Virus record (IMG/VR): IMGVR_UViG_3300042526_000595
Coordinates: 1 to 64,000 of that record
Reading direction: 5' to 3' (one strand)
Length of the DNA stretch: 64,000 nucleotides
From: an uncultured virus (IMG/VR IMGVR_UViG_3300042526_000595)
Lineage: Duplodnaviria; Heunggongvirae; Uroviricota; Caudoviricetes
Position numbers and translations under genes: made by a program
In this document: in pieces, positions 21,640 to 48,597 of the stretch
Layout: each line of letters begins with the position of its first letter
Position numbering within the stretch: position 1 is the first letter of the stretch
The notes under the pieces: generated by a model
What the model saw: only the letters and a program-made list of their open reading frames with translations
Databases searched by the model: none
Told to the model about the DNA's origin: nothing

Positions 21640-22803
21640 ATGGAAATAACTGGAAGTCATATTTATAAAAATTTAAAAATATCCCAACATGATTCAATAT
21701 CGGAAAGTTTTGAAGAACTAATCATTTCTCTCAAACCTAGTCAAATTTTAGAAATAGGTACTTTTGGGGGTGGATTAACTTTATTAATTAGAGATTTATT
21801 AGATAATAACGGATTAAAAAATACTAGATTAATAACCTACGATATTAACACACCTTCCCATCTTATGGATTATGTGAGAGAAGGTTCAAAGATAGATGTT
21901 AGAGTTAAAAATATTTTCAATTCCGATTATAATGGTTTAATTGATGAACAGGAGATAATAGATATTATACAATCAAATGGGACAACATTAGTTTTATGTG
22001 ATGGGGGTAATAAAATAAATGAATTTAAAATATTGTCAAATTATTTAAAAGTTGGTGATGTAATTATGGCACATGATTACTCCCCAAATGAAGAACATTT
22101 TCAAAAACATATTAATAATCAAATATGGAATTGGTTTGAAATACAAGATTCAGATATTATTGACTCTTGTATTAAAAATAGTTTAATCTCTTATATGGAA
22201 GAAAAATTTAGAAATGTTGTTTGGGTTTGTAAAATCAAATCACAAGTTTTGTTATCTATTTTAGTATGTTCTTTACTTGAGAGAAATAATACATTTTTAA
22301 ATAAATTAATTAATTCGGTTGAATCTCAAATCGGTGATAATCCGGTAGAATTTTTAGTATTTTCGGATAACGCGAAAAGGTCTATTGGTGCAAAAAGAAA
22401 TGATTTATTAAGATTATCAAAAGGAAAGTATGTTTCATTCATTGATGATGATGACCGAATTTCCGATACATACATTAAAGATATTCTTAACGAAATTGTT
22501 AATTGGTCACCAGATGTTATCGTTTTTGATGCGGAAATTTCATTTAATGGTTCTAACAATAAATTAGTTAAATATGGTAGGGAATACGATTATTGTGAAA
22601 AATCCGATGCGTATTATAGACACCCAAATCATTTAATGGTTCATAAAAAAGAAAATATTACCGAATTTTTTAACAACATTAATTTTGGTGAAGACGATGA
22701 ATGGGCGTCGAGAATGTTACCAAGAATCGTAACACAGTCAAGAATAAATAAAATTTTATATTTTTACGATTACAACACCTCAACTAAAAAAATAATTAAA
22801 TGA
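21640..22803 (+). CDS. SAM methyltransferase / GT2 fusion
   Basis: ILEIGTFGGG, CDGG, AHDY; then IGAKRN...FIDDDD...GEDDEW. Confidence 0.8.
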   Translation: MEITGSHIYKNLKISQHDSISESFEELIISLKPSQILEIGTFGGGLTLLIRDLLDNNGLKNTRLITYDINTPSHLMDYVREGSKIDVRVKNIFNSDYNGLIDEQEIIDIIQSNGTTLVLCDGGNKINEFKILSNYLKVGDVIMAHDYSPNEEHFQKHINNQIWNWFEIQDSDIIDSCIKNSLISYMEEKFRNVVWVCKIKSQVLLSILVCSLLERNNTFLNKLINSVESQIGDNPVEFLVFSDNAKRSIGAKRNDLLRLSKGKYVSFIDDDDRISDTYIKDILNEIVNWSPDVIVFDAEISFNGSNNKLVKYGREYDYCEKSDAYYRHPNHLMVHKKENITEFFNNINFGEDDEWASRMLPRIVTQSRINKILYFYDYNTSTKKIIK

Positions 22804-23429
22804 TGGAAAGATTTAATATTATAAATTACTTGATAGAAAACAATAATTATAAAAGTTTTTTGGAAATTGGGACTCAGGATCGTATCAATTTATCCAAAAT
22901 AATTATTGATAAAAAAATTAGTGTTGACCCAGACCCAAATGTTAATAGTGATTTTAATATATCTTCCGATGATTTTTTTAAACAAAATATGGATAAATTT
23001 GATATTATTTTTATAGATGGACTACATCATGCCGATTTTGCGTATAGAGATATAATAAATTCATTAAAAATATTAAATAAAGACGGTTGCATTGTTGTTC
23101 ACGATGTTATACCACATTCATATGAAAGCCAACTAATCCCGTTAGAAAAAACATTGTTAAACGGTACATCAATATGGAATGGTGATGTTTGGAAAACATG
23201 GATTAAATTAAGAACTGAAAGAAAAGATTTAATGATGAAAGTTGTGAATACCGACCACGGATGTGGTATCATACATTTAACAAACTATAATAACGGAGAT
23301 TTTTTAGAATCTTACAATAATGGCTATTATGAATATAATAAAGAACTTATATTATCATCATTAAATCTAATTTCTTCTGACAAATTTTTAACATTATTTA
23401 AAACCCCAATTTCTAAACAATATGATTAA
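22800..23429 (+). CDS. Class I SAM-dependent methyltransferase (Methyltransf_24-like)
   Basis: FLEIG, FDIIFIDGLH, VVHD, WNGDVWK. Confidence 0.85.
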   Translation: MMERFNIINYLIENNNYKSFLEIGTQDRINLSKIIIDKKISVDPDPNVNSDFNISSDDFFKQNMDKFDIIFIDGLHHADFAYRDIINSLKILNKDGCIVVHDVIPHSYESQLIPLEKTLLNGTSIWNGDVWKTWIKLRTERKDLMMKVVNTDHGCGIIHLTNYNNGDFLESYNNGYYEYNKELILSSLNLISSDKFLTLFKTPISKQYD

Positions 23430-31306: not shown

Positions 31307-34300
31307 TTAGTCACAAATAGTTAAAATGTTTCCTATAACTCCTAGATTATTAATTGGATAACCACTCGTAATACTTGTTCCGATATTAATGACGTTATTA
31401 CCAACGTCCAATGGGGTAGTTAACGTAATATCGGAGTAAACGGTAATTCCTGGTTCAAAAACTGATGAGAGTGAATAACCTGTATAGATGTTACCACCAC
31501 AATTTGATAAAATAAGTGTAGTTGCTCCCAAATTTGTTGATGTTATTACTATATCTACCGTCATATTCGCGTCAGGCGGAAATTGAGAATAAAATGTTGC
31601 CACTCCTGACGCTACTCCCACATATGGTAATACTTGTGCGTTATACGCTGTTAGATAACTTGCGTTTTGTGGTGTAACAGATACATCACAATTTGCGGTA
31701 ATATTTACATTACTAAATGAATATGTGTAATATCCTGACACTAATGTCCACGATGCTGCGGTTAATGTTTGACCTGTAAGTTTAATTGGTGTTGAACCTC
31801 CACCACCTGAACTTGTTCCGCTAGTACCTGCCATTCCTGATGTTCCGCTAGAACCAGAACCTCCTGCAGTTGTTGTAACTAGTAAACCATTTGAACCAAC
31901 ACAGATTGAACATCCTGATGAACTTGCGAAACTACATACAGATAAGTCATTAACAAATGTTGTGCAAGCTCTATTTGCTGTTATATTACTACCTATGATA
32001 TTGGTACATGTAAAACTTGATGATATAGTGTTATTTCTACCACCAAGTATTGATGAATAAAGTGAACAAGCACTATTACATAAACCACCAGCAATCGTTG
32101 AAGAACTCCCTTGATTAATATTACAATACCCTCCACCAATTGATGAAAAGAAACCTTGAGCATTATTTTTAGACCCCCCACCAATTGTTGAACAAGCACC
32201 TGTTGCGCAGTTTCTATATCCACCACCAATGGTTGATAATCTACCCGAATCACAGCAAACAATTGTTCCGGTTAATAAACCTCCTGTTGAGAATGTTCCT
32301 CCTGATGTGTTGTGTCCAATACCTCCACCAATTGTCACCCCTAAAGAACAATATTCATTTGTTGGTGATTGGATAATATTTCTATGTCCCCCACCTATAG
32401 ATGCCATTCTAGTATTTGTTATATTACAATAACCACCATTAACGCTAATAAACGAACCACATGTGCAGTTACATTTTCCTCCACTAATGACTGAATTACA
32501 ACTTACAGTAGAACCATACGCACCTCTTACTTTATTTTGACTACCACCACCAATAGTTCCAAATATGTTATTACCAAAACTACAATTCAGACATCCACCA
32601 CCAATGAATATATATGATGTTTGACCATAATTTAATTTTCCGCCTACAACAGATGTGTAACAACTAGAAACACAGTTTCTACATCCTCCACCAATAAATG
32701 AACGAGTTCCTGACGATATATTACATTGACCACCAACAATTGTTGAAAAACATGTTGATACGGTATTTCCGCTACCCGCTAATGCCGCTGAGAAACACGA
32801 TGTTGCAGTATTACTGACACCACATCTAATAGTTGAATTAACACCTGTTCCGGTAATGATTATACCACCCCCTCCTGCAGTTGTTGTAACTAGTAAACCA
32901 TTTGAACCAACACAGATTGAACATCCTGATGAACTTGCGAAACTACATACAGATAAATCATTAACAAATGTGGTACATGCTCTGTTTGCGGTTATATTAC
33001 TACCAATAATATTGGTATTTGTAAACGCTGATGATATAGTATTAAGACAACCACCAAGGATTGATGAACAACTACCATTAACGGTATTTCTTGTACCACC
33101 ACCGATAAACGATGTTGTTCCTGATGCTATATTACCTATACCACCACCAATGGTGCTACCACAACCACCGGCAGTATTTCTAATAACAGAAATTGAATAA
33201 GAATCACTTAATACACACATTCCACCTCCACCAATTGTCGAATAATTACCTTTGGCGTAATTTCCTTGACCCCCACCAATTGTTGAGTAAAGTCCACAAG
33301 CAACATTATTACATATTACATAAGAACCTATATTAACTGTGTCTTCTATAACTCGACTTTTACCACCACCAATTGTCGAGCCATTTCCTAACGCTTTATT
33401 TCCACCACCACCACCAATAGTTGAAAAATCCCCTATGGCTTCATTAGTCGTTCTTCTTGTGTATCCATAACCACTGTTAATCCTTATCTCACCACCCCCA
33501 CCAATAGTGCTTAAATATCCAATAGCTTTATTACATCTACCACCACCAATTGTAGATGTATGTCCTGATGCAAAATTTATAATACCACCACCGATTGTTG
33601 AATGATTACCTTTAGCGTAATTTCCACCACCACCACCTATAGTTGATAAACACCCTATGGTTTTATTATTACACATTGTTAAGGTATTTGGTTGATAATC
33701 GTCGACTTGCCAAACAAATACACCACCACCACCAATTGTTGATGTATGTCCTGATGCATAATTTCCTCCACCTCCACCTATGGTTGAGAACTGTCCTGAA
33801 GCTATATTATATTTAACTATATTAGAACAATAAGAGTTTCCTGAACAAGAAAATCTTCCACCACCACCAATTACAGAATAACAACTGGTTATAGTATTTA
33901 AATAACCACCACCAATTGTTGAGTAAGTCGCATTAACACAAAGTTTATTACCATAACCACCCGATATAGTTCCTAGTCCAGATAAAACACGATTACAATA
34001 ACCACCACCAATGAATGACCTACTACCTGAAATTATATTATCAACACCACCACCAATAAATGAGATACTTCCAAACTCACAAATTACATTACCTATACCA
34101 CCAACAATTGATGATGTACTTCCTGATACACTATTAAGAGTACCACCAACAATTGATGAGGCACCTCCTGATACGGTATTATTTTTACCCCCAACAATTG
34201 ATGAACAACTACCACTTAAAGTGATTGTATTTCCACTACCACCTAATGCTGCCGAAAAATTTCCTGATGCGGTATTTCCAACACCACATCTAATAGTTGA

Positions 34301-35929
34301 ATTAACACCTGTTCCTGTAATGATTATACCACCCCCACCTATTGGACTTGTTCCACTTGTTCCAGCAATTCCGTTTGCTCCTGAGGTTCCTGAAGAACCG
34401 CTAGAGCCATAAACAGCTCCAAGAGTTGTTACCACATAAGAATAATACTGTATCCCTTCCGTATACCAAGTAACTGGATGATTACCACTTGATTGGTCAA
34501 CCACATATATTTTAACAATCATTCTATCGGTAGGAAGAATATAAAATGATGTTGGTATTACTAAATCTACATATACTTCAACAGGTAGGACAGAACTAAT
34601 CCAAGGAATTAACACTTGATTAGTTTGTAATGGACTACCACTATATGGTGTTCCTGTAGAATCGGCTAATTGTATTGTACAGAATGTGTCTGTATTAAAT
34701 CCTTGACCTCCCTTTAAGAAATGTAAATGAAATCTTTGTAGTCCAGGTGGAATAACAGTAACATCCAATCCTGACGCATTGGTGATAAATTCTTGAACTA
34801 ATACAGGTGTTGCCCCATTAGTTGTTCTTGTTATTGTTTCTCCGGTTGATGATGTTGGTAATATATCAATCTGTTTATACGATAAAGGTGTTTGGGTTAC
34901 AGATTCATTAAAATAGAATATTTGACCTGATGAAACTCCACTAACACCTGAAGAACCACTAGTACCTGAAGAACCACTAGTGCCTGAAGAACCGCTAGTA
35001 CCTGATGTTCCGTCAATACCGCTAGTACCTGATGAGCCTGATGTTCCATCTATACCGCTAGTACCTGATGAGCCTGATGTTCCTGAAGAACCGCTAGTAC
35101 CTGATGAGCCTGATGTTCCATCTATACCGCTAGTACCTGATGAGCCTGATGTTCCGTCTATACCGCTAGTGCCTGAAGAGCCTGATGTTCCATCTATACC
35201 ATTGGTACCGGATGTCCCACTAGACCCTGAAGAACCACTGGTTCCATCAACTCCGCTAGTTCCTGATGTACCATCAATTCCGGTCGCTTCGATAGATACT
35301 GTCGCCCCATCATTCCTATATAAATCTAAAGTAGATGTTGCTGAAAAATAAGTTCCTCCCGTAACATATACATCTTGTATTGCTGTTGCAAACTTTCTCC
35401 ATCTAGCATTAATTCTAATAACTCCATCAACACCCTCAATTGTTGACCCCGTCCAAGTATCAATAAATAATTGACCTTCTGTTGAGTTATTTTTAACTGT
35501 TGTACCAAAATCAGAAACAACAACAGTGTTACCACCAGGTCCTGAAGCTCCTAAAGCGTCAGACCATAATGTATTATAATTATCTATCGAAAATTGATAT
35601 ACTTGGTCTGTTTCATATACATAAACCAACATACCCAATCTTCTTCTACCTGATGAGATATTATCAGAATTTAATGTTATTGTGTCAAATGAAAATGAAG
35701 AATTAATTCCTTTATAAAATTGAATTGGTATGGTATTACCAGAAAATTCAATATCACCATTATCACCAAAAGGTATTGTGTAAATTAAATCATTTAAGGT
35801 GTAAACCTCCATAAAACCACCCGTATTTAAAACACTAAATGTTGTTCCAAATGTGCTAGTTCTTAATGAAGATTGACTCCCTAAGGCTATTATTGGTGAT
35901 AACGGATTTTTATAATTTAAGTTAGACAT
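31307..35929 (-). CDS. Large tail-fibre-like protein with GTSGSS repeats and Cys-rich SxIGGG beta-helix repeats
   Basis: (GTSGSSGTSGID)n and dozens of SxIGGGxxN units. Confidence 0.75.
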   Translation of the reverse strand: MSNLNYKNPLSPIIALGSQSSLRTSTFGTTFSVLNTGGFMEVYTLNDLIYTIPFGDNGDIEFSGNTIPIQFYKGINSSFSFDTITLNSDNISSGRRRLGMLVYVYETDQVYQFSIDNYNTLWSDALGASGPGGNTVVVSDFGTTVKNNSTEGQLFIDTWTGSTIEGVDGVIRINARWRKFATAIQDVYVTGGTYFSATSTLDLYRNDGATVSIEATGIDGTSGTSGVDGTSGSSGSSGTSGTNGIDGTSGSSGTSGIDGTSGSSGTSGIDGTSGSSGTSGSSGTSGSSGTSGIDGTSGSSGTSGIDGTSGTSGSSGTSGSSGTSGSSGVSGVSSGQIFYFNESVTQTPLSYKQIDILPTSSTGETITRTTNGATPVLVQEFITNASGLDVTVIPPGLQRFHLHFLKGGQGFNTDTFCTIQLADSTGTPYSGSPLQTNQVLIPWISSVLPVEVYVDLVIPTSFYILPTDRMIVKIYVVDQSSGNHPVTWYTEGIQYYSYVVTTLGAVYGSSGSSGTSGANGIAGTSGTSPIGGGGIIITGTGVNSTIRCGVGNTASGNFSAALGGSGNTITLSGSCSSIVGGKNNTVSGGASSIVGGTLNSVSGSTSSIVGGIGNVICEFGSISFIGGGVDNIISGSRSFIGGGYCNRVLSGLGTISGGYGNKLCVNATYSTIGGGYLNTITSCYSVIGGGGRFSCSGNSYCSNIVKYNIASGQFSTIGGGGGNYASGHTSTIGGGGVFVWQVDDYQPNTLTMCNNKTIGCLSTIGGGGGNYAKGNHSTIGGGIINFASGHTSTIGGGRCNKAIGYLSTIGGGGEIRINSGYGYTRRTTNEAIGDFSTIGGGGGNKALGNGSTIGGGKSRVIEDTVNIGSYVICNNVACGLYSTIGGGQGNYAKGNYSTIGGGGMCVLSDSYSISVIRNTAGGCGSTIGGGIGNIASGTTSFIGGGTRNTVNGSCSSILGGCLNTISSAFTNTNIIGSNITANRACTTFVNDLSVCSFASSSGCSICVGSNGLLVTTTAGGGGIIITGTGVNSTIRCGVSNTATSCFSAALAGSGNTVSTCFSTIVGGQCNISSGTRSFIGGGCRNCVSSCYTSVVGGKLNYGQTSYIFIGGGCLNCSFGNNIFGTIGGGSQNKVRGAYGSTVSCNSVISGGKCNCTCGSFISVNGGYCNITNTRMASIGGGHRNIIQSPTNEYCSLGVTIGGGIGHNTSGGTFSTGGLLTGTIVCCDSGRLSTIGGGYRNCATGACSTIGGGSKNNAQGFFSSIGGGYCNINQGSSSTIAGGLCNSACSLYSSILGGRNNTISSSFTCTNIIGSNITANRACTTFVNDLSVCSFASSSGCSICVGSNGLLVTTTAGGSGSSGTSGMAGTSGTSSGGGGSTPIKLTGQTLTAASWTLVSGYYTYSFSNVNITANCDVSVTPQNASYLTAYNAQVLPYVGVASGVATFYSQFPPDANMTVDIVITSTNLGATTLILSNCGGNIYTGYSLSSVFEPGITVYSDITLTTPLDVGNNVINIGTSITSGYPINNLGVIGNILTICD
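31860..32956. repeat. Direct repeat, 86 bp identical (31860-31945 and 32871-32956)
   Basis: Both copies encode LSVCSFASSSGCSICVGSNGLLVTTTAGG. Confidence 0.85.
34940..35280 (-). repeat. Gly/Ser/Thr tandem repeat with 9/18/27-bp periodicity
   Basis: Recurrent ccgctagtacctgatgagcctgatgttcc units. Confidence 0.9.
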
Positions 35930-37569: not shown

Positions 37570-40500
37570 TTAATTAAATTTTAAATATTCCTGATTACCT
37601 ACCGATAAATATTCGTTATCGTTAATTAAAAGAACATCATTAATAATTTGTTCGGGGATTGTCGGTGTGGGAGTAGGTGTTTGAGTTATTGTTGGGGTAA
37701 GTGTGATTGTAGGTGTTATTGTAGGGGTTATTGTAGGAGTAGGTGTGGGAGTTGCGGTATATTCAGTGATTTCATATTCAAAATCATCAACTAAACAAAC
37801 ATTAGTATTACAATCCGGACAATCCGGATTAAACATTTTGAAAGTATCTTTTAATAATTTAAAGTTATGTTTTATTTCAGGTGCTGATAATGGTGAAACA
37901 TACATTCTAAATTGAGAGATTCCCCCATCAAAAGTTCCAGCAAAATTCTGTTCTATTAATATATTGGTATTTAAACCTGAAAATGTTGTTCCACTTAAAT
38001 CATTAATTGGAAGACATTCTGGGTCTTGAATATATGGGCCTAATGGAGATGTAGATGAAGAGAATGTTAAATTTTCTCTTAAACCTTGAGTACCTCCACC
38101 CCACGAAACATTAAAGGGAACACCAACTTGTTTTTCTTTATCTGTATTTAATCCCCTTGGGATAATCTCTTCAAAATCCTCAATAGTATAAAATAACTTA
38201 CCATTAATATAAATTTTTAATCTACCTTTTCTGTAGTCTTTATCTAATAACCATTTTTCGTTTAAATTAACTAATTCTATTTGTTCTGGCGTACGACCAT
38301 TTGTATGTGTGTAAGGTATTGTGATTAACGATACCGTATTATTGGCTAATGATTCTAAATATTTTCTTTCTGTAATATCACCAAGTCCCCCGCGATACCA
38401 TAAATCACAAGTGTCTAACCAAGTATATCTTTCCCAAACAGCATTTAACTGAAACCAATGTTCCTCTTCTAAATAAGCTGGATTAATTAATTCACAATCC
38501 GGATATATTCCACCAGGTGAACAATATTCGGTAATGGTATATCCTGTTGTATAAGTGATTCCGGTTGTTTCACAACTACCTGTTGTTTCACATCCTCCGG
38601 TGAATCGTAATACTTTTACACCAATTTGGGGATTCTTTGGGTCACCACAAAGTTTAAATGATAATGCGTTGGACATTGAATCATATAATGGGTCAACCTC
38701 ACAAGTATTTTCTATTGATGTAAATCCTGTGGTAGCACAAGTGTCGCAAGTATCACAAGTGGTACAATTACTACAAGTTGGAGTACATACTGGAGTTGAT
38801 AAACAATTAGATTGGGTGGATGTTAGTGTAGAAGTTGGTATTTCTATTATTACCGCATCATTATTAGCTTGTAAATACTGAATATCTCCATCTGGAGAGC
38901 CAACATCACAAGTCATAAGAGCCGCTGGTATTGTTAGTGTTATTATGTTTCCTGTAATATTATAAAACACAATATCATCTCCAACTGTTCCACCTAAATC
39001 TGTACAAGCAGGTAAACTTATTGTTGTTAAGGATGTACAATTATAGAAAAAACTATCACCCGCACTTATTAATTGAGGTAAATCTATTGTTGTTAGTGAA
39101 TAACAATTTGTAAAACAATAACTACCAGCGTTAATCAACTGAGGTAAATTAATTGTTGTTAATGATACGCAATTAGAAAAAGAATGGTTTCCGGCAGTGG
39201 TTAAATTAGGTAAATCAATTGTTGTGAGTGATGTACAATTACTAAAACATTGATTATCTATCGCAATTAACTTTGGAAAATACATTGATGTTAATGATAA
39301 TAATCCGTAAAAAGCTCCCCCATCAAAATAACCACCTCCTGTTATATCAAGACATTCAGGAAATGAAATTTCGGTAATATTTTCACAATAACTAAATGAA
39401 TCAGTATAGATTGAAGTTACACACCCTACTGAATCAATTACTTTTATAATATTATTATTGGATATAAAAGTATTCTCCTTTATAGTTATATCACTACCAC
39501 CAATTAATCTCACTTCATTCCCAACAATATCAACACTTGTAAATGGATTACCATAAGTAGGTAAATCAAAAAATGTATTCCAATCTATTACTGATGATGC
39601 ATCTCCTACAAGAGCATTAGCATTAGCTATATCATCAAATGTTAATTTTAATGATGATGGTAATTGTGTTGGGGTTGGTGTTGGTGTCGGTGTTTTTGTA
39701 GGTGTTGGTGTTGATGTTGGTATTTCTATTATTGTTACTGTATTGTTTGCTTGTAAGTATTGAATGTCTCCATCAGGTGAACCTACATTACAAGTCATAA
39801 GTGCGGCTGGTATTGTTAGTGTTATTGTCTTACCTATTATATTATAAAATACATTATTATTACCTGTTGTTAATCCTAGATTAGTACATGATGGTAAACT
39901 TACACTTGTTAATGAAGTACATAGAAAAAAACATGAATCCCCTATAGTAATTGCTGATGGTAGGTCAATATTTACTAATACTCCAGACTGTTTAAAACAC
40001 GCAACACCTATGTTTATAGATGATGGTAAATAAACTGTAGTTAATGAATTACAGTAAGAAAAACACCCATTTCCTTTAATACCTACTGTAATAAGATTAG
40101 GTAAACTAACACTAATTAAAGATGTACAAGCAAAAAAACATTCGTCTATAATATAGGCAATACATGAACCACTAAATGATAATATATTATTATTATTTAA
40201 AAATATATCTCTCACGGCAATGTTCTCACCACCTATTAATGTAACTTCATTAATGTTAACAACTACACTTGTAAATTGGGTTGACCAATTTGGTAAATTA
40301 AAAAATAAATTCCAATCCAAAACTGAACTTGAATCACCTACTAATAAATTAGCATTAGTTATATCATCAAAATCAATAACTAAATTACCTGAATATCCAA
40401 TAAATGGTTGATAAGGTGAATTATTAATAATTAAATCATTATCAAATGATAAACGAATAATATCATCATCTAATATAATAGATTCATCAATAGTTAATGT

Positions 40501-42366
40501 TATATTGTTTCCTACTATACCAACAAATACATAATCATATCCTATTGTTCCACCTAAATCTGTACAAACTGGAATATTTATTGTTGTTAATGAAGTACAA
40601 ACACCAAAACAACCACTTCCTGCAATAGTTAAGTTAGGTAAATTTATTGTTGTTAATGAATTACAATTATCGAAACAATAATCACCTGCAGTAGCTAATA
40701 AAGGCAATTCTAATATTGTTAATTCAGAATAACCATAAAAACAATAATTACCTGCCGTAGTTAAGTTAGGTAAAGATAAATTAGTTAATTGGCTAGCACC
40801 ATAACTACCTGTAGTATCATCACCAAAACACTGTACTCCAGCAGTTTCCAAAAGAGGTAAATTAAATAATGTGACTTTTGGTGTAATATCAAAACAATAG
40901 TCACCCGCAGTAACTAATGATGGTAAATTTACCGTTGTTAAATTTAATGCAAATACAAAAGTAAATCCTTCTAATGATATTATACTATTGGCATTATCAA
41001 TAATGCTTATTAAATTTATATTATCACTAAATAACCTATCTTTTATAGTTATATTACTACCACCAAATAATTGTACTTCGTTTCCAATAACTATAACTGA
41101 TGTAAATGGATTACCATAAGCAGGTAAATCAAAGAATGTATTCCAATCATTAACATCTGATGAATCTCCTACAAGAGCATTAGCATTAGCTATATCATCA
41201 AATGTTAATTTTAATGATGATGGTAATTGTGTTGGGGTTGGTGTTGGTGTCGGTGTTTGAGTGGGTGTTTTAGTAGGTGTTGGTGTAGGTGTTACATTAA
41301 TAATTGTTTCACAGATGTGGTTTTGACATTCCCACCCACAAGTTGCGCAAGAACTTTCATTACAACCACAACCACAACTAGTTTTAGTTTCGGGATTCCC
41401 CCCACATAAATCACAACCATAACTAACACGAGTATCGTGTTGATTATTAACGGACCTAGGTGGATAAACATATATACAACGACTATTAGTTATTGTATTA
41501 TCACAACAAGCGCAAGTTGTAACACCGGTTAATTCAGATGTTATTCTCGTATATCCTGTAAAACAATTTGGAGTACCATTTGCGTGATGATAAAATTTAT
41601 TTTCCGCCCTTGTACCTAAATAAAAGAATGTGTTCTTATTTTGGGGATATATCTCGTTAAGAGTTGTTTCACCTGAACTTGGTGTGTATTCATCAATTAA
41701 ACGAGGTTTTAAAACCATCTCAACGCTCCACCCTTTATTTACTCGTTCAGGGAAAATTTCATAATCATATCCAAATAATTTATAAAACCCTTGATAAAAT
41801 CCACCATATAATTCGTGGTATTTACCTTCCGATAATCCTTCTTTACTTACAACCTCATATAGTATGGTTTTATCAAACCCTGAAAATCTAACATTAGGTG
41901 ATTGGGTGTTACCAGTAACTTGGAACAATTTTAATCTTCTATCAAACGATAATCTATCAAATTTAATAAAATCTGAATATATTCCTTTTGTAAAATTAAT
42001 GGTTTCTCCACTCATTTTATCAACCAAACCATTATCAATCCCTGTTAATCCAATATCACAAGATGTTGATGATGAAAAACAAGAAAAATCTTCGTTATTT
42101 GGGTTATAATAATTTTGAGAAACAAAAATATTGTTAACATTATAATTTTTATAAGTTAATGTTTGGTCTTGAGCTGTGAGAGGATTATTTATGTCAAAAT
42201 AGAATGGTAATCTATTGCCATATGTTTGAGCAATCAAATATGGTGAGAAAATTACTTCCTCATTATAGTCTCGTTCATCGTTGGTTAACGACATATCTTG
42301 TGAGTCTAAACTCAACTTTAGAGACCAATTTGACTTATAATATTGATTTATATTTTGACTCGCCAT
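37570..42366 (-). CDS. Large virion protein: Cys-rich, LamG-like backbone interrupted by three LRR cassettes
   Basis: C-terminal LKIYINGKL...FDGGISQFRMY (LamG-like); three TFDDIANA...DWNxFFxLP cassettes with LRRs. Confidence 0.7.
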   Translation of the reverse strand: MASQNINQYYKSNWSLKLSLDSQDMSLTNDERDYNEEVIFSPYLIAQTYGNRLPFYFDINNPLTAQDQTLTYKNYNVNNIFVSQNYYNPNNEDFSCFSSSTSCDIGLTGIDNGLVDKMSGETINFTKGIYSDFIKFDRLSFDRRLKLFQVTGNTQSPNVRFSGFDKTILYEVVSKEGLSEGKYHELYGGFYQGFYKLFGYDYEIFPERVNKGWSVEMVLKPRLIDEYTPSSGETTLNEIYPQNKNTFFYLGTRAENKFYHHANGTPNCFTGYTRITSELTGVTTCACCDNTITNSRCIYVYPPRSVNNQHDTRVSYGCDLCGGNPETKTSCGCGCNESSCATCGWECQNHICETIINVTPTPTPTKTPTQTPTPTPTPTQLPSSLKLTFDDIANANALVGDSSDVNDWNTFFDLPAYGNPFTSVIVIGNEVQLFGGSNITIKDRLFSDNINLISIIDNANSIISLEGFTFVFALNLTTVNLPSLVTAGDYCFDITPKVTLFNLPLLETAGVQCFGDDTTGSYGASQLTNLSLPNLTTAGNYCFYGYSELTILELPLLATAGDYCFDNCNSLTTINLPNLTIAGSGCFGVCTSLTTINIPVCTDLGGTIGYDYVFVGIVGNNITLTIDESIILDDDIIRLSFDNDLIINNSPYQPFIGYSGNLVIDFDDITNANLLVGDSSSVLDWNLFFNLPNWSTQFTSVVVNINEVTLIGGENIAVRDIFLNNNNILSFSGSCIAYIIDECFFACTSLISVSLPNLITVGIKGNGCFSYCNSLTTVYLPSSINIGVACFKQSGVLVNIDLPSAITIGDSCFFLCTSLTSVSLPSCTNLGLTTGNNNVFYNIIGKTITLTIPAALMTCNVGSPDGDIQYLQANNTVTIIEIPTSTPTPTKTPTPTPTPTQLPSSLKLTFDDIANANALVGDASSVIDWNTFFDLPTYGNPFTSVDIVGNEVRLIGGSDITIKENTFISNNNIIKVIDSVGCVTSIYTDSFSYCENITEISFPECLDITGGGYFDGGAFYGLLSLTSMYFPKLIAIDNQCFSNCTSLTTIDLPNLTTAGNHSFSNCVSLTTINLPQLINAGSYCFTNCYSLTTIDLPQLISAGDSFFYNCTSLTTISLPACTDLGGTVGDDIVFYNITGNIITLTIPAALMTCDVGSPDGDIQYLQANNDAVIIEIPTSTLTSTQSNCLSTPVCTPTCSNCTTCDTCDTCATTGFTSIENTCEVDPLYDSMSNALSFKLCGDPKNPQIGVKVLRFTGGCETTGSCETTGITYTTGYTITEYCSPGGIYPDCELINPAYLEEEHWFQLNAVWERYTWLDTCDLWYRGGLGDITERKYLESLANNTVSLITIPYTHTNGRTPEQIELVNLNEKWLLDKDYRKGRLKIYINGKLFYTIEDFEEIIPRGLNTDKEKQVGVPFNVSWGGGTQGLRENLTFSSSTSPLGPYIQDPECLPINDLSGTTFSGLNTNILIEQNFAGTFDGGISQFRMYVSPLSAPEIKHNFKLLKDTFKMFNPDCPDCNTNVCLVDDFEYEITEYTATPTPTPTITPTITPTITLTPTITQTPTPTPTIPEQIINDVLLINDNEYLSVGNQEYLKFN
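39601..41258. repeat. Direct repeat, 95 bp identical (39601-39695 and 41164-41258)
   Basis: Both encode [31 protein letters not shown]. Confidence 0.88.
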
Positions 42367-42417: not shown

Positions 42418-43248
42418 ATGATAAATTTTAACACGGAGTACTTCAGTAATAATTATTACTTCTTTTTAAAAGATAGAGGAGATAAAATATCCCTATATTA
42501 TTCTGTTGCGGATACTTTAACCGAATCAAGAAAAAAAGATGACAAGATTGACTTTGATAAAAAAGATACAAAAAAAATTAAAGATGTTATGTCTAAAGTT
42601 TTAAAGTCAAAGAAAAAGGTGTCAAAAGACGATTTAACTAAAACTTTAAAAAATGTTAAATCCAAAACAGAAATAGAAGAATTTGTTGATGAGGATGGAA
42701 CAATGTTAACATCTAGAATACCATATATTAATACCGCCTTATCTCCACGAAAAACGATGGACCAGACCGTTCCTATGGCAAGAACAACTAACGACCCTGT
42801 TACTAGAGGTTATAGAGTTTATTATGGTGAGAGTGAAGAAAAGGGTGATGAGATGATAAATGAAGTTGATTATTCAGAAGCATTTGGATATGCTGAAACT
42901 GAAAATATGGATTACGATAATACGGTTAAAACTCTCGCTAAAATGGGTGTTGAGAATCCGGAAGAAAGAGCTCAAGAATTTGGAAAACTTCCAAAACAAA
43001 AAAAACACGACGGTAAGTTAAAACAAAGATTATCTGAAAAAGATACAATAGAAGAACAACAGAAACAACAAATGACCAAAATGGTTGAGGATATTTTAAC
43101 CAAAAAATCAAAAGACGATTCTGGTGTTATCAAAAATAATGGTATCAGTAAAATATTAATGAAAAATCTTCAATCTATTAAAAAAATTGCTGAAAAAGAA
43201 GGTATTAGTATTAATATGTTAATTAAATCACTAAAATCAAATGAATAA
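42418..43248 (+). CDS. Hypothetical protein (charged; possible internal head protein)
   Basis: 276-aa ORF behind late promoter; LTE, INE, LSE motifs. Confidence 0.7.
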   Translation: MINFNTEYFSNNYYFFLKDRGDKISLYYSVADTLTESRKKDDKIDFDKKDTKKIKDVMSKVLKSKKKVSKDDLTKTLKNVKSKTEIEEFVDEDGTMLTSRIPYINTALSPRKTMDQTVPMARTTNDPVTRGYRVYYGESEEKGDEMINEVDYSEAFGYAETENMDYDNTVKTLAKMGVENPEERAQEFGKLPKQKKHDGKLKQRLSEKDTIEEQQKQQMTKMVEDILTKKSKDDSGVIKNNGISKILMKNLQSIKKIAEKEGISINMLIKSLKSNE

Positions 43249-43711
43249 GGATTTATACGGAAAATCTTTTGCTATCCCCCAAGATGTCATTGAATATTTA
43301 CATCAATGCAATCAAGCTGTTGGTGAAGTGGATGAAACAACCGAAGGGTTTAAAAGAAATAAAGATTTAAGAGATAAGAAAGAAATTACATACCAACAAT
43401 TAAAACGAATGAAAAATTGGTTTGATAATTTTGATGGTCACGAAAATGATACCACACATATTTTAAATGGTGGACATTATGTGAAAAATTGGGTCAATGA
43501 CACATTAAATTCTATGAGAGATAATGTTGAGAATACTAAACAGAATAAGTCTGAAGTATTACCAAATCAATTCATCCAACCTCACGAAAAAAATGATATG
43601 ACAAAGATGAATAGACCAACTCAATCACATAAATCAGCCGTGAATAGATATGATTCAGCAATTGTTGAGAATTTACAAAGAATAAACGATTTAATAAAAA
43701 AAATAATTTAA
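43241..43711 (+). CDS. Hypothetical protein
   Basis: 156-aa overlapping ORF; LKRMKNWF...LNGG...WV. Confidence 0.7.
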   Translation: MNKDLYGKSFAIPQDVIEYLHQCNQAVGEVDETTEGFKRNKDLRDKKEITYQQLKRMKNWFDNFDGHENDTTHILNGGHYVKNWVNDTLNSMRDNVENTKQNKSEVLPNQFIQPHEKNDMTKMNRPTQSHKSAVNRYDSAIVENLQRINDLIKKII

Positions 43712-43714
43712 GTT

Positions 43715-44008
43715 ATGGCAAATTTAGACCCAATAGACTTGGCTCAACCAGAAAATAAGTTGTCGTCTATCGCGACAGCACAAAGAGCAATATTATTCCC
43801 AAAAAACGATTATAAAACAACTAACCAATATTCTTCGGTTAATCCTGACGCATTGGCGGATGGAGATACTAAAGGTAAAGGGACTGGTGGTGATTTAGAT
43901 GTTTATAATCAAGGTGCCGGAGCAATCCAAGACATTTTAGAAAGAAAATCTGAAATAGTTGTGAATACCTTTAAACCAAACGCACCTTACACCACACCAA
44001 GCGCTTAA
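43715..44008 (+). CDS. Hypothetical protein
   Basis: 97-aa ORF; NPDALADGDTKGKG; TAATG coupling to next gene. Confidence 0.7.
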   Translation: MANLDPIDLAQPENKLSSIATAQRAILFPKNDYKTTNQYSSVNPDALADGDTKGKGTGGDLDVYNQGAGAIQDILERKSEIVVNTFKPNAPYTTPSA

Positions 44009-44424
44009 TGAAACTTTACAATACATTTAAGTCCCTTATTTTAGAAGTAGCGTCAGTTGACTCAATAGTCAATGCTATAAAAAATAAAGACAAGATAATA
44101 ATTTACTACGATGGTGATGAACCTGGTGGTCGTGGATTAAGGGAGATAGAACCTGTATGTTTTGGATACAGTAAAGCCGATAACCCTGTTCTACGAGCTT
44201 GGGATACTCAAGGAGCGTCTCACACCGGTTATAAAGGAGAACAACCTCTACCAGGATGGAGACTTTTTAGAGCAGATAAAATTCTCTCTTTTAAACCATC
44301 CGGAGAAAAGTTTGACACACCAAAACCCGGCTATAATACAGCCGGAGATAAAAGTATGACAAGAGTTATCATAAATGCGGTTTTTAATGAGCAACCAACT
44401 CAAACAGAACCAACACAATATTAA
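44008..44424 (+). CDS. Stand-alone WYL-domain protein
   Basis: IYY...REIEPVCFG...LRAW...WRLFRADKI. Confidence 0.75.
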   Translation: MKLYNTFKSLILEVASVDSIVNAIKNKDKIIIYYDGDEPGGRGLREIEPVCFGYSKADNPVLRAWDTQGASHTGYKGEQPLPGWRLFRADKILSFKPSGEKFDTPKPGYNTAGDKSMTRVIINAVFNEQPTQTEPTQY

Positions 44425-44430
44425 AACATT

Positions 44431-45042
44431 ATGACAAACGAAAATAGTTTAATGGAAAAATTAATGGTGTCTAAAAAAATGATAGACATTCATAACCAAA
44501 CACCAAGAGGGGGATTACCTTCTATGAATTCATATAATTCACCTGAAGTAGAATCATACGATGCTCCACAAGCAAAGTATTCATTACCTCAAGAGTTTTT
44601 ACAAGAAAATTCAACAACAAATGAACCTTATTTATCGTCAATACCTAAAACACCAACGATGCCACAACCTCTTACAAGTGATAGAGTTATGTCATCTAAA
44701 TTACCTGACGAAATAAAACGATTAATGATAGAACACCCAATTAACCAACCAAGTTCTATGGGTGGTGGTTCAGTTTTATCTGATGAATTAGTTGAAAAAG
44801 CGTCAAAATTAATGAATTTAAAAGGTAATCAACAACCAACCCAAGTTGTTAAAGAACAATCATCTCAACCAAATTTTAATAACAAACAATTAAAGGAAAT
44901 GTTAAAAGAAGTTGTTGAGGAAGTTTTATTAGAAAATGGTGTGATTGCCGAATCAACACAAAAATCAAACGAACTCTTCTCTTTTAAAGTTGGAAAACAT
45001 GTTTTTGAAGGTAAGGTAACCAAGATTAAAAAATTATCTTAA
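44431..45042 (+). CDS. Hypothetical protein
   Basis: 203-aa ORF; SKLPDEIKRLMIEHPI; C-terminal FKVGKHVFEGKV. Confidence 0.7.
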   Translation: MTNENSLMEKLMVSKKMIDIHNQTPRGGLPSMNSYNSPEVESYDAPQAKYSLPQEFLQENSTTNEPYLSSIPKTPTMPQPLTSDRVMSSKLPDEIKRLMIEHPINQPSSMGGGSVLSDELVEKASKLMNLKGNQQPTQVVKEQSSQPNFNNKQLKEMLKEVVEEVLLENGVIAESTQKSNELFSFKVGKHVFEGKVTKIKKLS

Positions 45043-45062
45043 CTTTATTTACTCTCAAGATT

Positions 45063-45093
45063 AACCCTCATCTACCAAGTTGGGGGTTTTTTT
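45063..45093 (+). terminator. Intrinsic terminator
   Basis: AACCCTCA...TGGGGGTT stem followed by T-run. Confidence 0.65.
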
Positions 45094-45126
45094 ATTTAAA
45101 AAACTTTCCTTTTGATTAAACCGGTA

Positions 45127-45134
45127 TATTTATA
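45127..45134 (+). promoter_or_regulatory. Putative late promoter of the homing endonuclease
   Basis: TATTTATA 16 nt before ATG 45151. Confidence 0.65.
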
Positions 45135-45150
45135 TAATAAAGATAAAGTT

Positions 45151-46065
45151 ATGGATATTAAAACTGAAAAAAAAATTATCTCCGAATATAAAAAGGGGAA
45201 AAGTAGTTTAGAAATTGTTAAAATTGTTGGATTATCAAAACCAACAATTCTTAAAGTACTACACAAACATAATTTAGTTAGAAAAAGAGATAGATGTTCT
45301 TCTTTAAATATTAAAAAAGATGGGGAAAAATACTATATTATTCGTAAATGTCCAAAATGTGGTCAAGACATAAAAACTACATCAAAAGATAGAACAATTG
45401 CTTGTCGGAATTATTTTAATTCCATAAATAAAAATAGTAATTGTGTTAAATGTATGTCAGAATCTTTTATTGGTGAGGGAAATCATTTTTTTGGTAAAAC
45501 TCACAAAAAAGAAAGTTTAGAAAAAATATCCAAAAGTAAAAAAGGTCAAAATTCAGGGGATAAAAATCATATGAAACAAGAAAAATATCGTCAAATGAGT
45601 AGAGATATTATGAGGTCAAATTGGGATAACGGTATATTAGATAGGGGTGTAATTTCTGAGCAAATGAAACAAACTCAACGAAGTGGTAAAATTAAATCAA
45701 CTATTGTTTCAAAAAAAGAAAAAGAGATTGTTAAAGAATTGAGAAAATTAGGTTATAAAATAATTCATTCATATCGGGTTGATAGTAAAGTGTGTGATGT
45801 ATATATCCCATCATTAAATTTAATTATAGAGTATTTTGGAGATTATTGGCATTGTAATCCAAAAAAATATGAACCAAATTATTTTAATCAGAAAAAAAAT
45901 AAATTTGCTTGGGAATTATGGGATTATGATAAAAAGAAACTTGAATTAATTAAAAGTTATGGTTATAATTTAGAAGTTGTGTGGGAGGGAGACCTAAAAC
46001 TCAACAATAAATTAATAGAAATCATAATAGAATCCTATGTCACAAAACTCACTTCAACGCCCTAA
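45151..46065 (+). mobile_element. Free-standing homing endonuclease (HTH, zinc ribbon, NUMOD3, Vsr/DUF559-like nuclease)
   Basis: N-terminal HTH; CPKC...CVKC; GNHFFGKTHKKESLEKIS; CDVYIP...IEYFGDYWH...YNLEVVWE; likely start ATG 45151. Confidence 0.85.
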
Positions 46066-47296
46066 CGGTCAAGAAAAGATTAGCGTACTCGTACTGCCAT
46101 CTGACCGCTCGGGCGTTGGTTAACAAAACGGTAAATTTCGCTCAGTCGACCCCCATGTATTCCTACAAAATCAATATCCCGATGATTTTCATGTGGATAT
46201 TGATTACGACCCAAAGATAGATGATATTAATTATTGGAAAAAATATCAGATAATTCACGCACATAGAACTATTGGTAATAACTACGATGTGTCGGCACAA
46301 ATAATTAAAGGGTTAAAAGAATTAGGGATTATTGTTATTGTTGATATTGATGATTATTGGTTACCAACAGTAGACCACCCAATCCATAGTATTATTGTAA
46401 AACATAAAATCCACGAAAAAATAGTTGCAAATTTAAAAGAAGCCAGTTATGTTACAACAACAACTGATTTATTTGCAAACGAAATTCGTAAGCTTAATAA
46501 AAATGTACTAGTTTTACCAAACGCTATAAATCCAAAAGAGGGTCAATTTAATCAACCAACACCACCATCAGAAAAAATTAGAGTCGGATGGCTTGGAGGT
46601 AGTTCTCACATTGAGGATTTAAATTTGTTGGGGAATTTTGTTCAAAAAAATCAAGACATAAATGATAAATTACAATATGTTATTTGTGGTTTTGATATTA
46701 GAGGTACCGTAACGGAAATGAATCCACAAACAGGTGAAGAAAGAAAAAGAGATATATTACCTCACGAAACTGTTTGGACTAAATATGAAGATATTTTCAC
46801 TAACAAGTATAAAACCATAGATGAGAACTATAAAAAACATTTATTAGAGTTCAAAGAAAGAGAATTTTTATCAACAAGTGATTTACCATATGTTAGAGTT
46901 TGGACAAAACCTGTTACAACTTACGCTATGAATTATTCAAAATTTGATATATCTTTGGCACCAATTAAAAATCATATATTCAATAGGATGAAATCTCAAT
47001 TAAAGGTGATTGAGGCTGGGTTTTATAAAAAAGCGTTAATTGCTTCAGAAATCGGACCTTACACCATTGATTTAAAACATTGTTTGAAAAATGGTAATTT
47101 TACAGATGGTAACGCAATTTTAATACCCGAGAATAGAAATCATAGTGATTGGTCTAAATCAATTAAAAAATTGGTTCAAAACCCTGAAATGATTACTGAA
47201 TTAGGCGAGAGATTATTTGAAACTGTTAAAGACAAATATGATTTAAAAAATGTGACCGTTACAAGAGCAGAATTTTACAAATCTTTAATTAAATAA
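46037..47296 (+). CDS. GT4-like glycosyltransferase with an internal in-frame TAA at 46121-46123 (candidate translational bypass; 415 aa if bypassed)
   Basis: Frame from ATG 46037 reads MSQNSLQRPNGQEKISVLVLPSDRSGVG*QNGKFRSVDPHVFLQNQYPDDFHV and continues into the 46193 ORF; VDIDDYW, RVGWLGGSSH, FNRMKSQLKVIEAG. Confidence 0.75.
46054..46119 (+). other. Long GC-rich RNA hairpin ending in the putative take-off codon
   Basis: TCAACGCCC (46054-62)/GGGCGTTGG (46111-19); CGGTCA (46066-71)/TGACCG (46102-07); inner GAT/ATC and GCGTA/TACTGC. Confidence 0.75.
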
Positions 47297-47299
47297 AAA

Positions 47300-48001
47300 A
47301 TGATAAACATACCTTTAACCAAAATATTGTTTCTTGATATTGAAACAGTTGGTGGATGTAAAAACTATACCGAGTGTAAAGTTAACAATCCTAATGTGGC
47401 AAAACAATTTGAAAAATATTTTGATTGGTTTCAAAAAAGATTTCCGGAAGATGTTGGTCGGTCATTTGACTATGTCTTTGAAAAACGAGCGGCATTAGTT
47501 CCCGAGTTTGCAAAAATTGTTTGTGTTAGTGTTGCTTTCGTTATGGATAATGGAGATATTAAAAAACAATCATTCTCCGGAGATGATGAAAAAAAATTAC
47601 TAAAAGATTGCCAAACATTACTTAATCGTTGTGGTAAATTAGATTTTTATCTATGTGGACATAATCTTAAAAATTTTGACATCCCAATGTTGGCAAAAAG
47701 AATGATAATTAACGGATTAAAACCATCCTCAATACTACCGTCTTACAATACAAAACCGTGGGAGATTAAAGCCATTGACACCAAAGAAATTTGGCAATAC
47801 GGAGCTTACACCGCAATTGGTTCATTGGACTTAATGTGTTCTTGTATGGATGTTCCATCACCAAAGGAAGGTGATGTTACTGGAGATAAAGTTCACGACG
47901 CGTATTGGAATAAAAATATGTTATCAGAAATCACTGCTTATTGTGAGCGTGATGTGTTAGTATTAATTGATGTAATAAAAAAATTAAAAGAATTAGAATA
48001 A
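47300..48001 (+). CDS. DEDDy 3'-5' exonuclease (PolB-exo-like)
   Basis: FLDIET, GHNLKNFDIP, YCERDV. Confidence 0.85.
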   Translation: MINIPLTKILFLDIETVGGCKNYTECKVNNPNVAKQFEKYFDWFQKRFPEDVGRSFDYVFEKRAALVPEFAKIVCVSVAFVMDNGDIKKQSFSGDDEKKLLKDCQTLLNRCGKLDFYLCGHNLKNFDIPMLAKRMIINGLKPSSILPSYNTKPWEIKAIDTKEIWQYGAYTAIGSLDLMCSCMDVPSPKEGDVTGDKVHDAYWNKNMLSEITAYCERDVLVLIDVIKKLKELE

Positions 48002-48597
48002 TGGAATATAATAATTTAGATTTTTTAGAGGAAAAGGCTAAAGAATTAAGACAAAGATTAGAGGGTGATTTTGAAGATTTAGATATGACCGAAATGATGA
48101 ATGAATTGGGTGTTGATATTAAAGATTTAGAGGATAAAATGTTAAATCATAGAACTAAATTACCTTTACAATTTAATAAATTACATCCCGATGCCGTAAC
48201 ACCTAAATACAATTACGAAGGTGATTCGGGATTTGATTTACATTCTATTGATGAGATAATTATACCCCCATTTGGAAGAGCTTTAGTCCCAACAGGATTA
48301 TCCTTTGACATTAAAGATGGTTATGAAATTCAAGTTAGAACCAAAAGTGGGTTAGCCATTAATCAGGGTCTTATGATATTAAATTCTCCCGGAACAGTAG
48401 ATTCCTCATACACAGGAGAAATAAAAGGAATTATTTTTAACACTAACCCTTTTGAGTTTACAATACCTAAAGGTATGAAAATAGGACAAGCTGTTCTATG
48501 TCCTGTTGTAAATGGGGGGTGGGTTGACTTAATTGAGGTTAACAAAATAAACGAAAAAGATAGAGGTGAGAATGGATTTGGAAGTACAGGAATATAA
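48001..48597 (+). CDS. dut: dUTPase (trimeric)
   Basis: DSGFDL, RTKSG, GTVDSSYTGEI, IGQAV, RGENGFGSTG. Confidence 0.95.
   Translation: MEYNNLDFLEEKAKELRQRLEGDFEDLDMTEMMNELGVDIKDLEDKMLNHRTKLPLQFNKLHPDAVTPKYNYEGDSGFDLHSIDEIIIPPFGRALVPTGLSFDIKDGYEIQVRTKSGLAINQGLMILNSPGTVDSSYTGEIKGIIFNTNPFEFTIPKGMKIGQAVLCPVVNGGWVDLIEVNKINEKDRGENGFGSTGI

Follow-up and report, generated by a model that had tools for sequence, protein, structure and literature searches.

A short coding gap linked to a putative homing endonuclease in a glycosyltransferase gene of large aquatic phages, probably skipped by a hairpin-assisted hop

The 64,000 nucleotides (nt) analyzed here, termed the window, are positions 1 to 64,000 of IMGVR_UViG_3300042526_000595, the record of an uncultured virus (Caudoviricetes). 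In the window, a glycosyltransferase (GT) gene is interrupted after 28 codons by a coding gap that begins with a stop codon, and the start of this gene overlaps the end of a gene for a predicted homing endonuclease. Based on the comparison with related loci, we propose that the endonuclease and the gap constitute a mobile cassette, and that the gap is probably skipped during translation by a peptidyl-tRNA hop assisted by a hairpin in the mRNA. To our knowledge, programmed bypassing has so far been represented by one case in phages (gene 60 of T4, with its homologues) and a single yeast mitochondrial system. With slightly less confidence, we favor the broader view that the homing endonucleases of large aquatic phages carry a hairpin-driven 'stop-hop', which would be a second programmed bypass, one that evolved independently and is far simpler.

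Organization of the locus

The window is of a large tailed phage: its matches to PHROG families include DNA polymerase, helicase, head-tail adaptor and tail fibre proteins, and related IMG/VR contigs are up to 322 kb in length. The runs holding the sequence are mostly lake and freshwater metagenomes. A megablast search of positions 44000-48000 against deposited phages returned no match, and a protein search against deposited phages found distant GT relatives only (at most 35% identity). The features of the locus are given below with their coordinates and strand; the loci of other contigs are designated by L numbers.

45096..46132, plus strand: putative mobile cassette, comprising the upstream motif, the endonuclease gene, the recoded GT segment 1 with its hairpin, and the coding gap (from the window compared with L001, and from the pair L023/L026)
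45108..45134, plus strand: conserved element ahead of the endonuclease gene, CCTTTTGATTAAAC ... TATTTATA, which may serve as a promoter or in regulation (before 12 of the 12 endonuclease copies inspected, in both lineages)
45151..46065, plus strand: predicted free-standing homing endonuclease of 304 amino acids (aa), with a helix-turn-helix, a zinc ribbon, NUMOD3 repeats and a C-terminal Vsr-like nuclease
46037..46120, plus strand: GT segment 1, 28 codons, strand beta1 and a Gly-rich loop (from the translation, the ratio of nonsynonymous to synonymous differences (pN/pS), and the model)
46054..46119, plus strand: predicted long hairpin, of which the 3' arm ends on the take-off codon (from the minimum free energy (MFE) in the window and the comparison of gap alleles)
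46118..46120, plus strand: take-off codon GGT (Gly28)
46121..46132, plus strand: 12-nt coding gap, composed of a TAA stop codon, CAAAAC, and the landing codon GGT (46130-46132)
46133..47296, plus strand: GT segment 2, KFRSVDPH... to the stop codon, GT-B/GT4-like body (PHROG 7162; model)
46130..46606, plus strand: probable co-conversion tract right of the gap (from the mismatches to L001)

The GT frame opens with the ATG at 46037 and reads MSQNSLQRPNGQEKISVLVLPSDRSGVG before the TAA at 46121-46123. After this stop codon and CAAAAC, GGT AAA TTT CGC begins GKFRSVDPH... in the same frame, which continues for 388 codons, including the landing Gly, to 47296. No in-frame ATG, GTG or TTG occurs from the landing codon up to 46193. 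An earlier note on this DNA had placed an endonuclease open reading frame (ORF) at 45151-46065, a 29-nt overlap of this ORF with the GT start, a 12-nt insert about 55 nt past the endonuclease stop codon, and the 5' arm of a hairpin within the last endonuclease codons. All of these positions were recovered in our analysis: the overlap spans 46037-46065, the insert begins 55 nt after the stop codon, and 46054-46062 can pair with 46111-46119, the latter arm including the first two letters of the take-off codon.

Loci compared

Three samples of related loci were pooled. The sample retrieved with words of the GT body contained 71 loci, and the junction was readable in 68 of them (L022, L057 and L070 were cut). 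A scan with the pattern of the recoded segment added eight contigs, and a scan with an endonuclease profile yielded 458 relatives, of which the best 79 loci were inspected. Altogether, the 162 loci (some contigs were fetched repeatedly) gave 78 distinct junctions, of which 39 were gapless and 39 contained a gap. As counted from the sample tables, the gap-bearing set consists of the window and 55 viral contigs. Gap lengths include the landing codon and were counted from the first nucleotide after the take-off codon. The 12-nt gap is not an assembly artefact, since a DNA run not flagged as the source of the window holds a contig identical over 44900-46260, and the 55 other viral contigs are gapped at the same codon.

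Two further candidates were rejected. Stop-codon reassignment was ruled out, given that TAA terminates other ORFs and that 13 of the gap versions shift the frame. A group I intron or an intein was also ruled out, as the gene upstream of the cassette terminates at its own stop codon (45040-45042) and the insert in the GT gene is merely 5-13 nt long.

The interrupted glycosyltransferase

The downstream gene encodes a GT-B, GT4-like glycosyltransferase. Its body matched the glycosyltransferase family PHROG 7162 with an E-value of 1e-45, and the model of an uninterrupted homologue (pLDDT 86.7) was matched by Foldseek to MshA, GlgM, BshA, PimA and PglA with E-values from 4e-12 to 1e-9. The match of the GT to Glyco_trans_1_4 in Pfam (E-value of 0.026) was under the cut-off of this family. 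Pfam searches with the truncated GT and the 28-residue peptide gave nothing useful, and a PDB sequence search with the full GT gave 0 matches.

In the model of the uninterrupted homologue, strand beta1 comprises residues 5-10 and residue 17 is the first of helix 1. The motif SDxxGxGxxR, in which S, D, both G and R are invariant among 24 uninterrupted homologues, is broken between its residues G18 and K19 (model numbering). The gap thus divides an invariant motif where helix 1 starts, inside the unit made of beta1, the loop and helix 1.

Gap versions and matched codons

The 39 distinct gaps are 5 (4 gaps), 6 (23 gaps), 7, 8, 9 and 10 (one gap each), 11 (5 gaps), 12 (2 gaps) and 13 nt (one gap) in length, 26 of them being multiples of three and the other 13 being out of frame. 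The 12-nt insert described in the earlier note is present in the window, but 12 nt is only one of the nine lengths from 5 to 13 nt. A stop codon immediately follows the take-off codon in all of the 39 versions (TGA in 21, TAA in 16 and TAG in 2), and in 38 of them the landing codon is the first downstream site at which the initial two letters of the take-off codon recur. The pairs of take-off and landing codons were GGT-GGT (13), GGC-GGT (13), GGT-GGC (2), AGC-AGC (4), AGT-AGC (1), GGY-GGA (5) and AGT-GGC (1); one tRNA could read both codons in 33 of the 39 pairs. The five Ser-to-Ser alleles were all found in the GT clades that have Ser at the corresponding residue (GVS-). As neither readthrough nor frameshifting predicts this covariation between the take-off and landing codons, the Ser-to-Ser alleles favor a hop. 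In every allele, a hop would restore the conserved ...GVG/KFR... without an inserted residue.

The sole unmatched allele, L142, has AGT (Ser) as the take-off codon, TAA as the stop codon and GGC (Gly) as the landing codon. This allele could use a first-position G-U pair, or it could be a case of readthrough. The gaps are A-rich and unstructured, and no G-rich element resembling a Shine-Dalgarno (SD) sequence was found in any of them.

Selection on both segments

The pN/pS values indicate that both GT segments are under purifying selection, including those in the lineages lacking the endonuclease. In the last 18 codons before the take-off codon, the value calculated from 13 distinct gap alleles was 0.23, versus 1.5-2.8 in the two other frames, and it was 0.19 in the 22 codons after the landing codon. 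For the whole GT body, pN/pS ranged from 0.09 to 0.36 among the gap alleles and from 0.18 to 0.26 among the gapless alleles. Three alleles without the endonuclease share an 11-nt gap and form a GT clade of their own, in which pN/pS was 0.12-0.23 at a pS of 0.52-0.69. The ORF after the landing codon was intact, or ran off the locus, in 38 of the 38 alleles examined.

The hairpin preceding the gap

A single long, three-tier hairpin is predicted for every gap allele (39 of 39) when the 75 nt up to and including the take-off codon are folded. The mean MFE was -29.5 kcal/mol (standard deviation of 2.5) in the gap alleles and -7.0 kcal/mol (standard deviation of 2.2) in the 39 gapless alleles, with a Mann-Whitney p of 3e-14. 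The last 21 nt contain 12-17 long-range pairs in the gap alleles, and eight or more such pairs were found in only three of the 39 gapless alleles; no comparable structure was predicted for any gapless allele. The arms covary among the alleles, as in CAACGCCC/GGGCGUUG, AACCCCGG/CCGGGGUU and ACUCCGG/CCGGAGU, and as in CUCACCCCAGUU/AACUGGGGUGAG versus CUGACCCCAGUU/AACUGGGGUCAG. In an alignment in which MAFFT mis-registers some clades, the covariation score with fixed columns was 0.203 versus 0.135 in shuffles, and none of 500 shuffles reached the real score; 74.8% of the cells were paired, versus 32-50% when the partner was slid. The support for the predicted hairpin is comparative.

The 3' arm encodes the conserved ...D(R)xGV, and the 5' arm lies in an N-terminal extension that the gapless alleles lack. 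This extension is conserved chiefly where it encodes the 5' arm, and it seems to exist to supply this arm. On the 3' side of the gap, only a weak and poorly conserved stem was predicted. A search of 44900-46400 against Rfam gave four sub-threshold matches, none of which was on the hairpin or the gap.

Insertion as a single block

The window and its nearest relative, L001, are 97.5% identical over 43193-45095 and 46130-48597. Between these regions, 45096-46129 (1034 nt) in the window stands for 110 nt of L001. The independent pair L023/L026, which belongs to another GT lineage, has the same edges, with 1033 nt in place of 109 nt and with homology restarting at the landing codon. In both comparisons, the alignments indicate that the endonuclease, the recoded GT segment 1 and the gap were inserted as one block ending at the landing codon. 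The block contains the conserved upstream motif, the endonuclease gene, the rewritten and longer GT start, and the gap.

Counted from the landing codon, the mismatches of the window to L001 per 100 nt are 12, 7, 9, 3 and 6, followed by 0 for approximately 690 nt. This graded run right of the gap is probably a co-conversion tract. No clear gradient of this kind was seen in L023/L026, and the right flank of the window was not found to be closer to other cassette carriers, as it groups with the L001 clade in every segment. Blocks of this type are present in many GT lineages. The GT bodies are mosaic, and the gap state changed at least nine times on one GT-body tree and at least 16 times on another. 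The RNA-library run X18 has both the cassette form and a contig joining 45092 to 46232, which shows that alleles with and without the cassette coexist.

The endonuclease

We regard the upstream protein as a Vsr-type homing endonuclease, an assignment supported by its model, and its cleavage activity is a prediction. The Pfam match to NUMOD3 had an E-value of 6.8e-6 and 26.3 bits versus a cut-off of 20.4, and the stretch of the zinc ribbon and NUMOD3 resembles the DNA-binding domain of I-TevI (1i3j) in a profile match with an E-value of 0.004. The mean pLDDT of the AlphaFold model was 72, and that of the nuclease domain was 80-90. The C-terminal domain of the model superposes on the catalytic domain of I-Bth0305I (3r3p; target TM of 0.79) and on Vsr (1cw0/1vsr). 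The sequence similarity to Vsr was marginal, the match to TIGR00632 having an E-value of 0.005, far under the cut-off of this family. Hence the Vsr-type nuclease claimed in the earlier note is supported by the fold, which is I-Bth0305I-like, and weakly by the sequence. The enzyme of the window shares its nuclease fold with I-Bth0305I and Vsr and its DNA-binding stretch with I-TevI, but the lineage of the window has its own domain order and an extra repeat module of approximately 60 residues, opposite residues 128-186 of the window enzyme.

As expected of a homing endonuclease, the locus shows a presence/absence polymorphism at a fixed site between conserved genes, and probable flanking co-conversion. 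Among the 458 relatives, 77 of the best 79 loci with an endonuclease homologue adjoin this GT family, in which GT identity is down to 36%.

The earlier note had also credited the endonuclease with its own promoter. The octamer TATTTATA is indeed present at 45127-45134, but a role as a promoter was not supported by the sigma-70 scan, which skipped the site. TATTTAT is retained upstream of 12 of the 12 endonuclease copies inspected, and the upstream motif is unique within the window. Promoter-like sites were not in excess in the sigma-70 scan (11 versus 9.1 expected), no excess of sites was found in a terminator scan, and the promoter pattern of the gapless type is absent from the window.

Co-occurrence of the endonuclease and the gap

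The co-occurrence of the endonuclease and the gap among relatives, which the earlier note proposed as a test, was observed, in support of the mobile cassette suggested there. In the 68 readable loci of the sample retrieved with GT-body words, 10 were gapped, comprising eight with a full endonuclease, one with a remnant (L020) and one with none (L067). The other 58 were gapless, 54 of them without an endonuclease and four with an endonuclease of a shorter lineage. Directly upstream of 33 of the 39 gap junctions lies an endonuclease homologue, which looks N-terminally truncated at three of them (L143, L151 and L155); the other six comprise one with a remnant and five with none. The ~60-residue module was found in all of the 33 endonucleases upstream of gap junctions. 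In the 18 gapless junctions with an endonuclease, the module was absent in 11, partial in two, present in three (L150, L158 and L159) and cut by the contig end in two. When phylogenetically independent pairs were compared, the endonuclease differed in the same direction as the gap in approximately 6.7, in the opposite direction in 0.5, and not at all in 7.8. Altogether, these distributions suggest that the gap tracks one endonuclease lineage, imperfectly. The ~60-residue module alone is no predictor of the gap, as three enzymes of distant gapless GT clades possess it.

The shorter endonuclease lineage (approximately 252 aa, without the ~60-residue module) occupies the same site and overlaps the GT start (L027, L051, L052, L040, L125-L139, L146, L149, L160 and L163). 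The alleles of this lineage have no gap, no N-terminal extension and no hairpin, and GVS or GCG replaces GVG at the target motif in some of them. In L147, the frame with the endonuclease match is 758 aa long from the first Met, which suggests a fusion with an upstream gene or a missing stop codon. L150, L158, L159 and L164 (GT identity of 36-40%, motif GVGH[FW]R..W) have an endonuclease relative upstream and no gap.

The gap persists after the loss of the endonuclease. Comparing L020:2742 with L011:1984-2741, a 758-nt deletion leaves the last 43 endonuclease codons of L020, in which the hairpin, the 11-nt gap and the GT are intact; by analogy, L020 resembles the decay stage described for mobA. 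L086, L089 and L090 have a 5-nt gap and no endonuclease. In these three loci, the opposite strand upstream encodes a 260-aa protein (oriented 397-1179, minus) with about ten tandem leucine-rich-type repeats, 'GTPIQSLPDNL'.

Proposed mechanism and alternative explanations

We propose that a free-standing homing endonuclease entered a phage genome just ahead of a GT-B gene, separating the start of this gene from the promoter region, and that the rewritten 28-codon GT start, the mRNA hairpin built from the rewritten stretch, and the gap would travel with the endonuclease as one block. During translation, the take-off Gly codon would be reached with the stop codon in the A site, the peptidyl-tRNA-Gly would unpair, and the mRNA would slide by 5-13 nt. 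Once the P site is occupied by the take-off codon, the 3' arm should lie within the ribosome and would necessarily be melted. Re-zipping of the hairpin behind the ribosome, which would pull the mRNA out on the exit side, probably aids the slide. The tRNA would then re-pair at the first cognate codon and translation would restart at AAA, giving a ...GVGKFR... protein. At the DNA level, the endonuclease lineage may recognize or cut gapless alleles at or beside the GVG/KFR codons, the gap, perhaps together with the recoded flank, may protect the carrier allele, and double-strand-break repair would copy the whole block into naive phages.

Several observations weigh against this explanation. Two signals of gene 60, the take-off stem-loop on the 3' side and an SD-like element in the gap, are missing. 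In five of the 39 pairs, landing is on GGA after GGT or GGC, and in one it is on GGC after AGT; these would need wobble or two-of-three pairing. With the sequence of the window alone, the hairpin does not reach significance (z of -1.74, with 11 of 200 shuffles folding as well), and the pairs changed on both sides numbered 7 versus 5.9 in the shuffles, which is not significant (148/500). Six of the 39 gap junctions lack an intact endonuclease. Conversely, 18 of the 39 gapless junctions, in a sample partly ascertained by the endonuclease, have one, with the long module in three, and the sign test on the independent pairs gave a median p of only 0.03. Recombination between gap and gapless phages could inflate the apparent selection. 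Finally, the contigs of the RNA libraries, which retain the gap, may derive from DNA. The relevant contigs are a 1226-nt contig over 45081-46291 in X18, with 13 substitutions and no indel, and a contig end in X20, with loose letters spelling the 11-nt variant; coverage of the stretch by the RNA runs X19 and X20 is limited to small parts, and the uncovered parts are uninformative.

An alternative to the hop is mixed recoding, in which the in-frame gaps (6, 9 and 12 nt) would be read through and those of 5, 7, 8, 10, 11 and 13 nt would be passed by a -1 or +1 frameshift at the stop codon, with the hairpin as a stimulator and a product bearing 1-4 extra residues. The -1 frame is open for eight codons before the landing codon in L011 and L020, a stop codon after a shift site would cause a pause, and most of the gaps (26 of 39) have a length divisible by three. 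However, two or three mechanisms would be required for one conserved architecture, there is no slippery heptamer at the site, and neither the cognate landing in 38 of the 39 versions nor the Ser-to-Ser switch is predicted. Variable residues would also enter the invariant motif at the start of helix 1. Moreover, known frameshift stimulators lie 3' of the shift site, whereas the hairpin here is 5' of it. We consider mixed recoding unlikely. We are slightly more skeptical of the idea that the gap inactivates a dispensable GT, in which case a selfish cassette would spread by homing in spite of its cost and the apparent constraint would stem from recent or repeated recombination with intact alleles. 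Free-standing endonucleases can be costly to their carriers, the GT bodies are mosaic, and the cassette of the window looks recent, judging from the identity of 97.5% to L001. Nevertheless, the ORF after the landing codon stays open in all alleles examined, and low pN/pS values were obtained from the three endonuclease-less alleles that have one gap and a clade of their own. The hairpin, the stop codon and the matched codons are retained across GT identities from 82% down to 43%, and segment 1 is itself under selection at the protein level.

The gap could instead split the GT into a 28-residue N-terminal peptide and a truncated GT that is reinitiated, for instance, at the GTG at 46193, the two possibly assembling. 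An ORF starting with this GTG (46193-47296) is present, and Manning & Atkins describe split genes with added tails at further sites of endonuclease insertion (gene 39/60 and nrdA). On the other hand, the 21 codons from the landing codon to 46193 contain no start codon, yet this region is under purifying selection (pN/pS over 22 codons, see above). The break is inside the beta1-loop-helix1 unit, and the matched codons would be left unexplained. We find a split protein about as hard to accept as an inactivated GT, and rank it just below the latter. Least probable is that the gap is removed from the RNA, by hairpin-guided cleavage and ligation or by editing, or that it is skipped by RNA polymerase. 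A large conserved hairpin does abut the gap, but the 12-nt and 11-nt gaps are still present in contigs of two RNA libraries, with no gap-less joint at the site, which is a weak argument as these contigs may be DNA, and the stretch matches no known RNA family. We know of no mechanism for excising 5-13 nt beside, rather than inside, a hairpin.

Comparison with known systems

Gene 60 of phage T4 is the closest precedent for the hairpin-assisted hop proposed here. The T4 gene 39/mobA/gene 60 region also combines a homing endonuclease and a coding gap in one mobile unit. Gene 60 also has a Gly take-off codon directly followed by a stop codon, a matched landing codon and an added N-terminal extension, and its gap is also retained where the endonuclease was lost. 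A 5' stem-loop in gene 60 has been proposed to drive the forward movement (Manning & Atkins, bioRxiv 10.1101/2022.08.31.505936; Wills et al. 2024). In contrast, the gap is 50 nt long and in a topoisomerase in gene 60, while the gap family of the window is 5-13 nt long and in a GT-B glycosyltransferase. The take-off stem-loop that gene 60 has on the 3' side of the codon, and its SD-like landing aid, have no counterpart in the system of the window. The 3' arm of the hairpin in the window ends on the take-off codon, a geometry unlike that of the 5' stem-loop of gene 60, and the endonuclease does not divide the GT into two ORFs, unlike gene 39/60. The nuclease is Vsr-like in the window but MobA in T4 is of the HNH type. 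The preprint text mentions VSR or GIY-YIG replacements adjoining the gene 60 cassette in some metagenomic sequences (bioRxiv 10.1101/2022.08.31.505936). The Ser take-off variants are a feature of the system of the window. The cassette is, as judged from comparative sequence features, well supported as a new, apparently non-homologous variant of the combination of an endonuclease and a bypass. The same preprint calls the gene 60 cassette 'unique' and knows of no report of comparable bypassing from any other phage (bioRxiv 10.1101/2022.08.31.505936).

Synthetic 'stop-hops' in Escherichia coli resemble the proposed hop in that the peptidyl-tRNA re-pairs, independently of the frame, at a matched codon a few bases past the stop codon (PMC5009743). 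In these low-efficiency laboratory constructs, matched codons flank the stop codon and 9 nt specify one amino acid. According to the same review, the existence of shorter natural counterparts of the bypass had long been presumed, yet in-frame stop hops were not known from nature (Atkins et al. 2016, PMC5009743). By comparison, the arrangement in the window is natural and conserved, has a dedicated hairpin, and resides in a gene under selection. The mitochondrial 'byp' elements of Magnusiomyces capitatus are likewise short and mobile, interrupt coding genes and are passed over in translation, but they are described as 27-55 nt long and GC-cluster-like, with an unused sense codon in the A site, a dependence on special mitochondrial decoding and no linked endonuclease (bioRxiv 10.1101/2022.08.31.505936). 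Our literature search, which covered neither subscription-only papers nor preprint supplements, did not find this GT system described, nor any published counterpart besides the gene 60 homologues.

Neighboring genes

Immediately 3' of the GT, 47300-48001 of the window encodes a stand-alone protein resembling PolB-type 3'-5' exonucleases (PF10108, E-value of 7e-14). Further glycosyltransferase genes were assigned by PHROG at 14933-16180, 21640-22803 and 23422-26283, and the set of glycosylation genes is unusually large. A 1598-aa protein encoded at 37570-42366 (minus strand) has three repeated leucine-rich-type modules with Pro/Thr-rich linkers and Cys-rich stretches between them, and adjoins a 1540-aa collagen-like tail-fibre protein (31307-35929). 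A tRNA scan of the window found none.

Implications

If the hairpin-assisted hop is true, it would be a case with very short gaps and one dominant RNA signal, the coupling of an endonuclease with a coding gap would be a recurrent evolutionary solution, and gene callers would mis-split or truncate such genes. Natural variants would also allow a direct test of whether forward sliding is driven by pairing of the mRNA where it leaves the ribosome. The alleles compared here would provide a natural series to dissect the sliding driven by mRNA refolding, as the gaps come in nine lengths, two tRNA species would be used, and hairpins with compensated arms number in the dozens.

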